This document shows, one piece after another, positions 32,311 through 37,318 of a stretch of DNA of 37,318 nt. A model generated the notes under the pieces. The model was not told the DNA's origin, did not search any database, and was given only the letters and a program-made list of their open reading frames with translations. Origin of the DNA: Planctomycetota bacterium (GTDB lineage: Bacteria > Planctomycetota > UBA1135 > UBA2386); assembly GCA_947501605.1 (NCBI GenBank), contig CANMWZ010000041.1, positions 1 to 37,318 on the forward strand, given 5' to 3'. Position numbers and translations under genes: made by a program. How positions within the stretch are numbered: the first letter of the stretch is position 1; every line of letters starts with the position of its first letter.

Positions 32311-34188
32311 ATGACGATCCGCATGTTGATTTCGGCGTTGCTGCTCAGCGCGGCACTGGCGGCGCAGGAGCAGAAGCCAGAAGCGGAACCGGCTGCGCCG
32401 TCGGCCGAGCAACTGCGCGCGATGCTGCAGCAACTTCGCGGGCTCGATCAGAAGGCGTGGGAAGCGCGCGCGCTGGAACTCGAACAGAAGGCTGTGGAAC
32501 AGGACCGCGCGGCCGTCGCGGCGCGCGAACAGAGCAAGCAGTTGCTGGAGCAAGCGAACGCGAGCGAGGCGCGGGCGAAGGCGCTGCGCGACGAACGCAA
32601 GCAATTGGAGGAGTTGCGGAAGCTGTTGCAGAACCTGCCGGTCGAGGCGGGTGGAGGCGGCGGTAAGGCGGAGGTGCCGTCGCCGATGCCGATGGCGGCG
32701 GGCGCGGCGGTTCCGGCGGCAGCGCCGCAAGGGATGCAGGCGGCGGCACCGGCGGTTGCACCAGCGGCGACACCTGCAGCGACACCGACACCCGCAGCTA
32801 CACCGGAGAAGGACCCTGCCAAAGAACCGGCGAAGGACGCAGTCCCGCCCAACGCCTCGGTGCCGCTGCTGACCTGGGCCGACGTGGAACCGCTGTTCTC
32901 CGAACACTGCGTGGGCTGCCACGACCCGGACAGCAACAAGGGTGGATTGGACCTCTCCTCCTACGCAGCAGCATTGCAGGGCGGCGGCTCGGGCAAGTCG
33001 ATCGTCCCTGGGCAACCGGACCAATCGCGGCTCTTCCGCATGATCGCGCTGCAAGAGCGCCCGTTCATGCCGCGCGACGCGGACGCGCTGTCGGCGTCGG
33101 ATCAGTTGCGCATTCGTACGTGGATCGAGCACGGCGCTGCCGAGGATCACTCAGCGGCGCAGGCGTTCTTGCGCGAACGCGACCAGAAGGCAAAGGCTGC
33201 AGCTGCAGCGATGGAAGCGACCTCGAGCGGGCCTGCGCCGATGCCGATCGATTGGCCTGCGGCGGGGTTGCGCACGTCGTCACGCGCGGTGCCGTTGGCG
33301 GCGATGGCTCGCAGTCCGCGCGCGGCGTTGCTCGCGGTGGGCGGGCTCGGCCAAGTTCTGCTACTCGACGGCAATGGCAAGCTCGCGGCGGTGATGGACT
33401 GCGACCTCGCGCGCATCGGCAGCGTCGGCTTTTCCCCGGATGGTCGGCTTCTCGCAGTTGGCGGTGGCGATGCGGGCCGCAGTGGACGCGCGATCGTGCT
33501 CGACGTGGTGACGGGCGTTCGGGTGGGGACGTTCGGAAAGGAACGCGACGTGCCGCTCGCGGTCGCAGTGCATCACGGGGCGCGGGTGGTGGCCCTCGCG
33601 GGCAGCAGCAAACGTGTGCGCGTGCTCACGCTCGATCGGGGTGCGGATGGTGCGGACGAGATGGTGTGGGAAGGCAAACACGACGACTTCGTGCTGTCGC
33701 TGGCCTTCTCGCCGGACGGGTCGCTGCTGGCCGCGGCGGACCGGAGCGGGGCCTGCGTGCTGTGGGAAGTCGACGGCGGCGAAGTGGCGACGACGCTGCG
33801 GGTGCCGCAGGGTGCAGTGAACGCGGTGGCCTTCCATCGGACGGGGTCGATGGTGGCGCTCGCGTGCGGCGACGGGACGGTTCGCGTGTTCGACACCAAG
33901 GACGGCAAGGAACGCTGGCAGAAGAAGGCGCACGCGCAGGAGGCGCTGGCGGTGGCGTTCGGGCCCAAGGACGCGATCGCGACGGGTGGCGCGGATGGAA
34001 AGATGGCGCTGTTCGCGAGCGACGGGAAGGTGTTGGGGACGAGTGCGGCGGCGGGGGACTACGTGCTGGGCGTTGGGTTCGGTGAGGTGGATGAGGTGGT
34101 GTTCGGCGGGGACGCGATGGGGCGAGTGCAGCGGTGGGAGGGGAAGAAGGTGGAGGTGGTGGCGGAGCTGCGGGGGGTCGGGCAGTAG
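32311..34188 (+). CDS. Planctomycete cytochrome c domain + WD40 repeat protein
   Basis: Signal peptide, coiled coil, Pro/Ala linker, CVGCH...GGLDL...MP...WI-x-x-GA, then WD40 blades (AFSPDG). Confidence 0.9.
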   Translation: MTIRMLISALLLSAALAAQEQKPEAEPAAPSAEQLRAMLQQLRGLDQKAWEARALELEQKAVEQDRAAVAAREQSKQLLEQANASEARAKALRDERKQLEELRKLLQNLPVEAGGGGGKAEVPSPMPMAAGAAVPAAAPQGMQAAAPAVAPAATPAATPTPAATPEKDPAKEPAKDAVPPNASVPLLTWADVEPLFSEHCVGCHDPDSNKGGLDLSSYAAALQGGGSGKSIVPGQPDQSRLFRMIALQERPFMPRDADALSASDQLRIRTWIEHGAAEDHSAAQAFLRERDQKAKAAAAAMEATSSGPAPMPIDWPAAGLRTSSRAVPLAAMARSPRAALLAVGGLGQVLLLDGNGKLAAVMDCDLARIGSVGFSPDGRLLAVGGGDAGRSGRAIVLDVVTGVRVGTFGKERDVPLAVAVHHGARVVALAGSSKRVRVLTLDRGADGADEMVWEGKHDDFVLSLAFSPDGSLLAAADRSGACVLWEVDGGEVATTLRVPQGAVNAVAFHRTGSMVALACGDGTVRVFDTKDGKERWQKKAHAQEALAVAFGPKDAIATGGADGKMALFASDGKVLGTSAAAGDYVLGVGFGEVDEVVFGGDAMGRVQRWEGKKVEVVAELRGVGQ

Positions 34189-34198
34189 GGGGGGACGT

Positions 34199-34692
34199 TC
34201 AAGCGAGAAGCGCCAGTCCGCGGATCTTGTCCAAGTCGCGGCGCACTTGTCGCGGATCGCAACGAACGGTCCGCGCGATGGCGCGGATGGGCAGGTTGGA
34301 TTCGAAGTGGAGCTCGTAGACGCGAAGCCGCCGAGGATCGAGGCGGCTCTTGACGCGTTCGCGACCGACTTCGATGTCCCAGCCTCGGGTGATCTCGGTG
34401 TGCACGTGCTGAGCATCGAGCAGGGCCGGGTCGGTGGCATGGTGCATGCGCTGCGATGCTCTGCGGGCGCCGTGCAAGAAGTGGGCGGCAGCGACACGGA
34501 AGTAAGCGAGAGGTCGGTCGATGCTGGAGCCGTGAGTGAGCGCCACCCACGTAGCGATGCGAATGTCCTGTTCTGCTTCGTCACGCAGGTGTGTAGGGAC
34601 GCTCCTTGCGATGACGTCCGGGATTAGCGAGAAGAGCTGGTCGAGGTCGGCGTCAGCCTCGTTCCTCGTTCCTCATTCCTTCGTGCTTGCAT
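34199..34692 (-). pseudogene. ECF-type sigma-70 factor-like gene, frameshifted at its 5' end within a 7-bp repeat
   Basis: The frame of the listed 34199-34546 ORF is open up to 34672 and reads region-2-like DEAEQDIRIATWVAL...IDRPLAYFRVAA and region-4 HTH-like LDPRRLRVYELHFESNLPIRAIARTVRCDPRQVRRDL. The ATG with a good SD (34692) is in another frame. Confidence 0.65.
34657..34680 (-). repeat. Heptanucleotide tandem repeat AGGAAYG x3 + AGG
   Basis: Minus strand reads AGGAATG AGGAACG AGGAACG AGG. Confidence 0.85.
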
Positions 34693-34701
34693 GAATGTTC
34701 T

Positions 34702-34707
34702 CTCCTT
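34702..34707 (-). promoter_or_regulatory. Shine-Dalgarno sequence for the sigma-like gene
   Basis: AAGGAG on the minus strand, 9 nt before ATG at 34692. Confidence 0.6.
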
Positions 34708-34946
34708 CCGTTGAGTGCGCGCCCAACGCGCGGACGTGACTAGTATGCCCCGCAGAACCCGCAGCCTCAACCGGGGCGACGGAGAGGCGAAGCGGAATGG
34801 CATGAGCCCGAGGGCCCAACCGCCCTCTGCCCGCCAGGGAATTCCGCGCCGCAAATGTCCTCCCCCTGCCTCTTAGATGTTGGAGGCGTCCGATCCGCGC
34901 GTGCGGATGCAGTGCGCCTCGAACCCTACAACGACCAGGCACGACG

Positions 34947-35309
34947 ATGACCGAGAACATCCCAGGCCGCCGCATTTCAGGTGGCGAGGCCTTCTACACG
35001 GACTGGGTTGCCCGCACGGGTGACAACATGCTGCTGCGGGTTGAGGCCATCGAGACGGCCGGGACTTCACCGCAGGTGGAGTTCGTGGTCGAGACGCGCG
35101 CAGAACCTGGCGCTACCATCACGACCCCCGTGTCCCCGACCTATCCTACGACGCCGCCGTTGAAGTTGACGTCCGAGACGGTCGCCACTGGCTACTACAA
35201 GGAGAACCTCAAGGCGGAAGTCCGTCTGAAGATCTCGTGTACGACCAGTAGTTCCACATACGCGGTGATTCGCGTGTTTCCCCCCATCTTCTTCGACTCG
35301 GCCAAGTAG
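34947..35309 (+). CDS. Hypothetical beta-rich protein (120 aa), paralog of the next gene
   Basis: ATG start, host-like codons; motifs shared with 35325-35663. Confidence 0.8.
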   Translation: MTENIPGRRISGGEAFYTDWVARTGDNMLLRVEAIETAGTSPQVEFVVETRAEPGATITTPVSPTYPTTPPLKLTSETVATGYYKENLKAEVRLKISCTTSSSTYAVIRVFPPIFFDSAK

Positions 35310-35324
35310 GCCAGGAGCCCAGCC

Positions 35325-35663
35325 ATGATCATCGGACAAACGTTGAACGGGGATTACGGTGCGGTGCGCGAGCACTTCACGCCGTGGTTCCCGCGCCAGG
35401 CCGACAACGCGATCTTCACCTACGAGCGGATCTTCAGCACGATGGGCACTGAGACGGTCGAGGTCTTCCACAAGAACGAGGAGGACACGGGGCTCGGCAC
35501 GTCGCTGGGCAGTTTCTCCGATCTCGGTTCGACGGGTCTGCTGGAATCTGTGTGCAGCGGGCTCAAGGAAATGATCCGGTTCAGAGTTCAGATCAAGAAC
35601 GCGAGTGGGTGGGTGCACTTCCGGTTCCTGCAACCGACTTGGTACTTCACGGGTAGGGTGTGA
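35325..35663 (+). CDS. Hypothetical beta-rich protein (112 aa)
   Basis: AGGAG SD before ATG; FTPWFPRQADNA, GLKEMIRF and WVHFRFLQPTW motifs. Confidence 0.85.
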   Translation: MIIGQTLNGDYGAVREHFTPWFPRQADNAIFTYERIFSTMGTETVEVFHKNEEDTGLGTSLGSFSDLGSTGLLESVCSGLKEMIRFRVQIKNASGWVHFRFLQPTWYFTGRV

Positions 35664-35745
35664 AGAGGAAGGCTGGGCTGCAGTTAGAAGTGGTGCGTGG
35701 TGCGGTGCACCCGTGTCGAGTGAGTTTGCTGTGAGAAACGACATC

Positions 35746-36678
35746 ATGCATGCGACCCAGGGCTTCAACATAGCGGGCGATGAGTTGTGGCAGTTTGAGG
35801 CCGCTGGCATGCGCGAGAGATGTGGAGGAGGGTGTGGTAAGACGGCGGGGCCCAGAGAGGCAGTGTCCGAGCATTTGCGCGGTCCTTGGAGCATTGGCGC
35901 TCAACCTGAGCCGTTCAGCGCAGGTTGTCGTAGTGGCGGTGTAGCCGGGATCGAGAGCGACTCGCTTGCGCGAGGGGACTTCGAGGAAGATTGTTGCCGG
36001 AGATGCAATCTTGGGAATGATAGAAGGGCCAGTAATGCCGTGCCCACGGACATCTTTGGCGAGCCGTGGGGCGGTGGGAATGGCCGGCCTTGGCTCGGCA
36101 CTTGTCAGAGCGGCGAGAAGTGGGCGCAAGGCGTTCACGAGAAGATCTGCGGACCGGATGTTACAGACCTCGTCATCGAGCAGTACCAGTCCATCGCCTT
36201 TGACCCTGGCTGGCCAAAGCTGTTGGACGTGACGCCACATGTGTCGGCCATCGACTTCAAGAACATAAAGCCTGTGATCGACAGGCCGCCCGCCAAATGT
36301 CCATCGAATTGTGGAGAGTCCATTACCTTCTGCGGCCAGTGCACTCATGATCAAGTGCCTGGAAACATCGGATTGGGAGTTGCGTATAGCCTAGAGGTGG
36401 CACTCGCTATCGGTGAATTAGCGGCCTGGATCGGAGGGAGCAAGGAGTCAGAGCAAGACAAGAAGTCCTACAAGTTTGGGCAGGAAGTAAAGAGGATCAT
36501 GAACCCATATGTTAGCTTCCCGGCGCCGATTGGGCCCGGAGCTTGGCCAGCGCCAACATGGAAGGATGGGGCTCACGATGCGATCAAGAAGGAACTCTGC
36601 GCCGCATTCACCAAATTCCAATTCACAGATTTCGGTAAGACGCAAAATTGCGAGCTTTGCCCGCACGCCTATAAGTAA
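35746..36678 (+). CDS. Cys-rich protein with candidate polymorphic toxin (Ntox44-like) C-terminal domain
   Basis: CGPDVT...CPSNCGESITFCGQC-x-HDQVPGNIGLG...ESEQDKKSYKFG; visibly lower GC than the flanks. Start uncertain. Confidence 0.55.
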   Translation: MHATQGFNIAGDELWQFEAAGMRERCGGGCGKTAGPREAVSEHLRGPWSIGAQPEPFSAGCRSGGVAGIESDSLARGDFEEDCCRRCNLGNDRRASNAVPTDIFGEPWGGGNGRPWLGTCQSGEKWAQGVHEKICGPDVTDLVIEQYQSIAFDPGWPKLLDVTPHVSAIDFKNIKPVIDRPPAKCPSNCGESITFCGQCTHDQVPGNIGLGVAYSLEVALAIGELAAWIGGSKESEQDKKSYKFGQEVKRIMNPYVSFPAPIGPGAWPAPTWKDGAHDAIKKELCAAFTKFQFTDFGKTQNCELCPHAYK

Positions 36679-36974
36679 TGAGCGCGCGGCATAGTGATGC
36701 GTCGATTTGTGAATCACGCGTGGGAATTGGGGCGTGCATCGCTTCTATTGCGATTGGGCCCGGCATCATGCTCGCCTGTCTAATTGTCGGTCGACTCTTT
36801 GGTGCGGATGGAGATCTAGGAATACTCTTGGTCGGCGTGTGTTTCTGCGCGTACTGCGTTGCCTTGTTCGCGTGCGTTCTCGCGCTAATTTACGCTCGGC
36901 GTGGGTGGTGGCTACTTGCTGTGCTCTTGGCTTTGTACGAATCGTGGTTCCTGAGCGGGTTCATGGGCGCGTGA
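36678..36974 (+). CDS. Small membrane protein (~3 TM), candidate immunity protein
   Basis: TAATG stop/start overlap with the previous gene; three hydrophobic segments; atypical codon usage. Confidence 0.6.
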   Translation: MSARHSDASICESRVGIGACIASIAIGPGIMLACLIVGRLFGADGDLGILLVGVCFCAYCVALFACVLALIYARRGWWLLAVLLALYESWFLSGFMGA

Positions 36975-37029
36975 GGGCCGCGCGAACGGAGATTGCATAC
37001 ATGGCAATAACAGCAATCTGCTACTCGTA

Positions 37030-37318
37030 CTACGGAGTGCCGCCGAGGTAACGCTCGAGCGTCCAGAGGATCTTCTTCGAGCCCCACGTCGGGTGCGCTT
37101 TGCGTACTCGCAGGATCGCTCCTTCGACCTCTGGCTTGGTCTGGTTTGGGTGCGACTTCGGCGTGCGAGATCCGTCCTTCCGGCCCGCCAGGCCGAGCTC
37201 GGCGTGCCTCGTCAGCATCTTGTCGCCGGTCTTGTGGTTGATCCCGTACGGGGCACAGCGCGCTCATCGACACCTCGCGCCGCAGTGCGGCTTGGACCAA
37301 CTTTCGTCGCTCCATCTC
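37030..37318 (-). mobile_element. IS481-family-like transposase remnant (frameshifted, truncated)
   Basis: One frame gives ERRKLV...SMSALC, another continues YGINHKTGDKML...G-x-x-G-x-x-D-x-SRTP-x-SHP...ILRVRKAHPTWGSKKI, then stops before any DDE domain. Confidence 0.8.

Follow-up and report, generated by a model that had tools for sequence, protein, structure and literature searches.

What is the compact block of genes that closes this planctomycete contig, and what might it do? The window analysed here is an entire contig of 37,318 nucleotides (nt; contig C41 of host genome G000, which is 91% complete). An initial annotation had described positions 34199..37318 as a candidate toxin module, and all the open reading frames (ORFs) that it named were found at their coordinates. 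Judged by sequence comparison, the block is one copy of an unnamed cassette family with polymorphic-toxin anatomy, present in many planctomycetes. The frame observed across the family is one to four jelly-roll paralogs, then a cargo gene whose leader matches the subtype and whose tip is exchangeable, and then a membrane protein or lipoprotein gene. The features of the window copy are as follows.

34199..34692, minus strand: sigma-70 gene of the extracytoplasmic function (ECF)-like type comprising regions 2 and 4, whose frame is disrupted close to the 5′ end (weak domain matches and a cassette-sigma profile).
34661..34681, minus strand: heptamer repeat between the start codon and the sigma body, a candidate ON/OFF switch (sequence).
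34947..35309, plus strand: p1, jelly-roll paralog of the first-position subtype, 120 amino acids (family profile, E 8.5e-20).
35325..35663, plus strand: p2, jelly-roll paralog of the second-position subtype, 112 amino acids (AlphaFold2 model and fold matches).
35746..36678, plus strand: cargo, 310 amino acids with 15 Cys, built of a leader, a Cys/Gly-rich linker and an Ntox44-like tip (leader and tip alignments).
36678..36974, plus strand: small membrane protein of 98 amino acids, candidate immunity protein (hydrophobic segments and position).
37030..37318, minus strand (ORF 37030-37218): transposase remnant of an insertion sequence at the contig end, as annotated (HTH_32, E 3.7e-7).

The two small plus-strand genes had been called paralogs. 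Compared pairwise, p1 and p2 are weakly similar (21% identity, E 2e-4). A family profile built from neighbouring relatives matched p1 at the E value listed above and p2 at 1.5e-31, and by this profile the two are firmly true paralogs. p1 clusters with first-position paralogs and matched no named family in Pfam, PHROG or NCBIfam. By profile search, relatives were found in 31 of 91 family genomes, with up to 23 matches in one genome, and in 31 of 401 sampled genomes of the phylum, across several families. The jelly-rolls form 1010 representatives at 50% identity, two-domain fusions among them. Twelve records are titled with metagenome-assembled genome (MAG) labels as deposited: nine planctomycetes, one "bacterium", one Nannocystaceae and one Rubrivivax. 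The cassettes in the MAGs labelled Nannocystaceae and Rubrivivax (L101 and L106; L numbers denote fetched cassette loci) reflect transfer beyond the phylum or a binning error.

De-duplication left 127 clusters, and the 94 that lie away from locus edges were used for paralog counts. One, two, three and four paralogs were present in 19, 46, 24 and 5 clusters, respectively (broken genes blur these counts), and the order of subtypes along the clusters is fixed. Eleven of the 91 family genomes hold members of a second, distant clade, which cross-matches the first clade at E 1.4e-9.

The best closed ORF behind each cluster was taken as the cargo (n = 97; a few picks are wrong, two of them transposases). 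That the paralogs are the conserved part and the cargo the variable one, as first proposed, was borne out across the family. The cargo C-termini fall into 69 tip classes among the 97. N-terminal similarity links stayed within one jelly-roll class in 103 of 104 cases (shuffled mean 27), and C-terminal links in 17 of 26 (shuffled mean 6.7); the shuffle overstates the coupling of leader and class because related cassettes are not independent. The L114 cargo, for example, is 76% identical to the window cargo over the first 21 amino acids and has an unrelated tip.

In the window cargo, a conserved leader of about 20 amino acids is followed by the linker and by a helical tip at about residues 131-305. 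Its description as a Cys-rich ORF of lower GC content was correct: GC at third codon positions (GC3) is 0.64 in the cargo and 0.61 in the membrane ORF, versus 0.80 in p1 and 0.83 in p2. Family-wide, cargo GC3 is lower than paralog GC3 in 94 of 97 cassettes, and Cys makes up a median of 4.5% of the cargo and more than 3% in 77 of 97. The absence of signal peptides was also confirmed, as p1, p2 and the cargo have no N-terminal hydrophobic stretch. Within the first 40 amino acids, such a stretch was seen in none of 226 paralogs and in 1 of 97 cargos. A twin-arginine signal was considered for p1 and rejected, there being no hydrophobic stretch behind the motif. At L169:2307-7813, two cargos stand in tandem; their leader is the same, their tips differ, and a membrane partner accompanies each; no jelly-roll gene was detected in the 13 kb of this locus.

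Pfam named 11 of the 97 tips at E ≤ 0.01, several of them below the cut-off, with enzyme- or toxin-like models: AMOP (2), DUF3750 (4), phospholipase A2-like (2), DUF6973 (1), DUF4329 (1) and Ntox44 (1). Three tips (L039:6601-7326, L055:1198-2232 and L097:7248-8171) have a Lipocone-type look by eye, with a profile hit in L097 only (DUF6973).

The tip class of the window cargo has nine members, which sit on several architectures and share six conserved Cys in the alignment. Its motifs are D170-x-K172, G206-N207-x3-G211 and E234-x3-D238, with position 234 being D in 7 of 8 rows. The parts of PMC3482391 that define Ntox44 give it the motifs DxK, GNxxxG and DxxxD and an all-alpha fold. The window cargo model is mostly helical (predicted local distance difference test, pLDDT, 70.5), and the Atlas neighbours of the tip include Ntox44 at 0.87-0.88. 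The best score of the tip family against PF15607 was 18.6 bits (E 0.0024), under the cut-off of 24, and the window cargo gave none. We therefore call the tip Ntox44-like and not a member of Ntox44, a likeness that the three motifs in the same order (the last as D/ExxxD) and the helical model suggest. It differs in that the six Cys and the membrane partner point outside the cytoplasm, versus the predicted RNase role of Ntox44. A search of the 91 genomes with the tip profile gave nine matches, four of them outside the alignment; three of these four adjoin jelly-roll genes and one bears a cassette leader. The tip model had no structural match at Z ≥ 5, and a profile search found no solved relative. 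No long (544-2000 amino acids) relatives of the tip were found, which is weak evidence, and at similar length only two near-identical proteins were found.

The gene behind the cargo had been read as a translationally coupled ORF with three transmembrane segments. The coupling stands, as its ATG overlaps the cargo stop, but only two segments are clear and the third is under the threshold. No homolog of this ORF was found in the fetched loci. Across the family, the partner position is mostly occupied by a membrane protein or lipoprotein gene. The gene after the cargo is strongly hydrophobic in its first 70 amino acids in 58 of 84 cassettes (seven wrong cargo picks dropped), versus 74 of 405 in a control from G000. 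By position and coupling, the partner is a candidate immunity protein. Membrane or lipoprotein partners together with Cys-rich tips suggest that the cargo tips act outside the cytoplasm; TelC shows the same combination of immunity location and action outside the cytoplasm (PMC12419801, section 29). We regard a polymorphic toxin-immunity cassette, with toxicity and immunity as predicted properties, as a very probable identity for the block.

What, then, are the jelly-rolls? The AlphaFold2 model of p2 is all-beta, a single jelly-roll, with a pLDDT of 91.3. Its top fold match is PirA (Z 8.5, root-mean-square deviation (rmsd) 2.7, 94 aligned), followed by collagen-binding and GOLD domains and the Ena2A fibre subunit (Z 8.3, rmsd 4.0, 94 aligned). 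XepA (Z 7.8) and the BPP-1 cement protein (Z 7.6) are tied with unrelated jelly-rolls. Foldseek found no match to the p2 model at E ≤ 0.001 in PDB or BFVD, and 8cjz_B matched the jelly-roll family only at E 0.42. A complex prediction of two p1, three p2 and the cargo leader scored 0.02 with the leader alone scored, which is evidence neither way.

One alternative is that the cassette is no weapon but displays extracellular enzymes or adhesins of variable type, for feeding, at the surface or in kin recognition. The jelly-rolls would then be a stalk or the tip of a fibre, with the product of the next gene as anchor or partner of the cargo. The AMOP tips, the presence of Ena2A among the top fold matches, the membrane nature of the partners and the beta-helix cargos in L245 and L246 fit such a system. 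However, toxin-type tip domains recur on several architectures, and the tightly coupled partner differs each time; the tips are of lower GC3; and the signal peptide is absent from the 226 paralogs and 96 of the 97 cargos. We consider display unlikely. At L245:4272-7402 and L246:4465-7451, three second-clade jelly-rolls are followed by a tailspike-like or pectate-lyase-like beta-helix protein, with no toxin-like cargo. L246:8758-9078 also holds a tetranucleotide array of 27 units in a signal-peptide-like ORF, a candidate phase-variable gene.

A further alternative makes the jelly-rolls decoration proteins through which the cargo is loaded onto a particle (phage, gene-transfer-agent or contractile) whose genes lie elsewhere. 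It draws on hints of phage ancestry, which are leads only. The nearest Atlas clusters of the jelly-rolls are phage proteins (0.93-0.94) and XepA, DUF6385 and Bbp16 (0.89-0.90); for distant subtypes, E values of 1.9e-7 to 7e-4 were obtained against the C-terminal part of PHROG 9522; and DUF6385 was matched at E about 0.01 by 2 of 11 second-clade proteins. Phage_sheath_1 is also found in 7 of 31 cassette genomes versus 3 of 60 others, many genomes being incomplete. However, no jelly-roll relatives were found among the viral contigs or phage records searched, 24 of the 31 cassette genomes have no sheath match, and G000 has no match to VipB, Phage_sheath_1, Phage_capsid or encapsulin. Such decoration is therefore an improbable role. 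Neither VipB nor Phage_sheath_1 was found in 18 of the 31 cassette genomes, G000 among them and some of them incomplete. With so many cassette genomes lacking both, the cassette seems independent of a contractile machine, and it is supported that a known delivery marker is not required in the host genome. That the jelly-rolls are cytoplasmic adaptors, not released, which pass the cargo to a type VI secretion system (T6SS) or another known system would fit the missing signal peptides and the frequent placement of adaptor genes directly upstream of effectors in T6SS loci, but is very unlikely: for the T6SS, VipB occurs in 13 of 31 cassette versus 19 of 60 other genomes (many incomplete) and was not found in G000 or in G008 and G040, which hold 17 and 15 matches.

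How might the cassette be controlled? A sigma-like gene had been annotated as pointing left from the block. It does lie on the minus strand and matches the cassette-sigma profile at E 5.9e-32 (the window gene is among the profile seeds), but it is not an intact frame and falls below the cut-offs of Pfam (Sigma70_r4_2, E 0.0068) and NCBIfam (TIGR02937, E 0.0014). A strong ribosome-binding site and the ATG at 34692 open a peptide of 22 amino acids only. The sigma body begins past the stop at 34672, in another frame, across a doubled heptamer (34674-34661). Assembly error is an unlikely cause of this frameshift. A contig from run X5 (X numbers denote public sequencing runs) covers 34095-37038 with five substitutions, no gap and the same arrangement, so the frameshift is not a slip of the window assembly alone. 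Intact divergent sigma relatives occur in L113 and L114. By profile, the window gene appears to belong to a fast-diverging sigma group found beside cassettes; its open frames had no entry in an exact-sequence collection.

Contrary to the initial expectation, a divergent sigma gene is not a constant part of the cassette. The proposed profile search with a table of neighbours did return paralogs with variable toxin-like and partner genes. However, 91 cassettes had 900 nt or more of DNA in front of them, and only 31 of these carry a sigma-like gene at a distance of up to about 900 nt, co-oriented in 24 and divergent in 7; a few of these may be ordinary ECF genes, which the cassette-derived profile also picks up. 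The DNA upstream of 80 cassettes showed no promoter motif in common. Related sigma-like genes without jelly-rolls were seen at L231:1452 and L256:4965-7707, beside small secreted Cys-containing proteins and membrane proteins.

The repeat arrays in the sigma genes are new beyond the initial annotation. The window heptamer has two exact units and one degenerate unit. We counted as arrays all tandem repeats of 21 nt or more with three or more copies of a 4-11-nt unit whose length is not divisible by 3. In a first set of loci (1011 kb), 12 of 14 arrays are located within a sigma-like gene or immediately ahead of it, at 187-1502 nt from the first paralog on its upstream side; L039 contributes two of the 12, which are identical copies. 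A further set (211 kb), fetched later and mostly of the second clade, holds 8 arrays, 7 of them in sigma-like genes and one in a signal-peptide ORF. Pooled, 19 of 22 arrays in about 1.2 Mb are in or just before sigma genes. Arrays with units of 3, 6, 9 or 12 nt were found three times, twice in one locus, and none is at a sigma gene. The whole of G000 has seven arrays in 4.65 Mb, none at its 39 sigma-like domains, among which the window gene alone has a doubled 7- or 8-mer in its 5′ region. At 13 other sigma loci, one array was found, in L231.

Of the 19 sigma arrays, the window's included, 10 leave the gene out of frame or split, 3 are in frame, 3 are ambiguous and 3 are out of frame with an in-frame start downstream. 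Two copies in L250, about 98% identical, differ by 57 nt of array. These copies and the positions of the arrays suggest phase variation of the sigma gene. The repeat unit differs at nearly every locus, which indicates repeated independent origin. Where a sigma gene is present, phase-variable control is in our judgement the likelier explanation, and decay of unused genes is a doubtful one.

Taken as a whole, the block is probably best explained as a self-contained polymorphic toxin cassette with a jelly-roll carrier and a sigma switch. In this proposal, a homo- or hetero-oligomer of jelly-rolls would grip the cargo leader, as the spike base of the Rhodobacter capsulatus gene transfer agent (RcGTA) grips the N-terminus of its fibre. 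Release of the jelly-rolls as a carrier that binds the leader is a prediction that we moderately favour; in an AB-like particle, they would serve as the carrier or bind the target. The Cys-rich tip would fold and act outside the cytoplasm, with the envelope of nearby bacteria as its target, and immunity proteins would for that reason sit in the membrane or periplasm. With signal peptides absent, the particle may leave by lysis of a producing minority or by another route, a weaker part of the proposal. Where present, the sigma factor would drive the operon, and its gene would itself be switched when a 4-8-nt repeat changes by strand slippage, so that only part of the population would produce. 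The window copy would be in the OFF frame.

Several observations weigh against this explanation. No sigma gene was seen in 60 of the 91 cassettes. The coupling of leader and subtype could be mere genetic linkage among related, non-independent cassettes. No Pfam hit was obtained for 84 of the 97 cargos, the window cargo among them, and the p2 matches, at Z 7-8.5 overall, are all in the generic jelly-roll range. Second-clade clusters in L245 and L246 precede beta-helix enzymes, and those in L251-L253 have no toxin-like gene. The heptamer array of L231 lies just upstream of a sigma match with no jelly-roll neighbour seen in 3.4 kb. The ambiguous arrays and those with a downstream in-frame start count against a switch, and no difference in repeat length was found between re-assemblies of the same loci or in run X5.

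How does the cassette compare with known systems? Like the polymorphic toxin systems treated in the available parts of PMC3482391 and PMC12419801, it has a conserved N-terminal part, an exchangeable C-terminal tip, an adjacent candidate immunity gene, and tandem and orphan copies. Unlike them, it has no Rhs, PAAR, WXG/LXG, MuF, HINT or signal peptide; its conserved part consists of a short leader and of jelly-rolls encoded by genes of their own, and its cargos are small and Cys-rich. This architecture does not appear in the available parts of those two surveys. A literature search that covered few subscription journals found the cassette undescribed, although the supplements of both surveys could list such loci.

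The working model for leader binding, by analogy, is the RcGTA head-spike base Rcc01079, for which the relevant part of PMC7296036 describes a jelly-roll pentamer that binds residues 2-10 of the fibre Rcc01080. Both would pair a small jelly-roll oligomer with an N-terminal peptide of a neighbour's product. However, no sequence or fold match to the spike base was seen, and G000 has no capsid. The XepA/YomS pentamers (described in part of PMC6834076), BPP-1 cement, PirA/PirB and Ena share a jelly-roll of similar size (Z 7.6-8.5, rmsd 2.7-4.0) at 7-10% identity to p2, with scores in the generic range. They differ in that they are not known to have variable cargo-immunity pairs or position-specific paralogs of this kind, except that Ena fibres are built with paralogous subunits. 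As in phase variation by simple sequence repeats, the units are not divisible by three, lie at the 5′ end or a linker of the gene and differ in number between copies; the differences are that the target is a cassette-linked sigma-like gene and that the unit changes at nearly every locus. No phase variation of such a gene was found described in the literature search.

Upstream of the block, a Pfam-type domain search found a planctomycete cluster of PSCyt1, PSCyt2, PSD1 and WD40 genes, and the block begins 10 nt past the WD40 stop. In four genomes of the same genus, unrelated DNA follows the WD40 ortholog, so the block is an accessory insertion. L257 (G075:C56) has another cargo and partner next to a sigma gene like that of the window, and a piece of the WD40 gene, from its 3′ end, points towards this sigma gene in convergent orientation. 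In run X5, the WD40 3′ end occurs in two variants (window 34003-34124). From these two observations, the island may integrate at, and duplicate, the end of the WD40 gene. GC skew is unusually strong (0.25-0.34) at window 33501-34500, which spans the 3′ part of WD40 and the island edge. At the other end, several contigs from runs X5, X12 and X13 branch near 37051. A second cassette of G000 (L081, G000:C36:28-2638) is cut by the contig start and has another jelly-roll subtype, another leader, another tip and a lipoprotein-like partner. Contigs from RNA run X15 cover the junction of p1 and p2, the sigma body and parts of the cargo; they were left unused as DNA carry-over is possible.

If this explanation is true, the cassette would be a new delivery class for polymorphic toxins in a phylum whose interbacterial weapons have barely been studied, and we see a real chance that it is. 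At its furthest, and tentatively, a jelly-roll from phage capsid vertices may have become, in planctomycetes, a free-standing, hetero-oligomeric, AB-type antibacterial toxin carrier independent of any secretion machine, with leader-carrier specificity codes, hundreds of envelope-acting tips and a sigma factor phase-varied through independently arisen 4-8-nt repeats. The family is a rich source of tip domains that lack annotation and come with candidate immunity partners, as the cargos without a Pfam hit and the 1010 jelly-roll representatives illustrate. It makes a role of an Ntox44-like domain outside the cytoplasm testable, and it is a clear case in which phase variation of a toxin-cassette sigma factor by repeats can be put to the test. 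The cassette thus looks, if our reading is true, like an undescribed means for planctomycetes to fight rivals.

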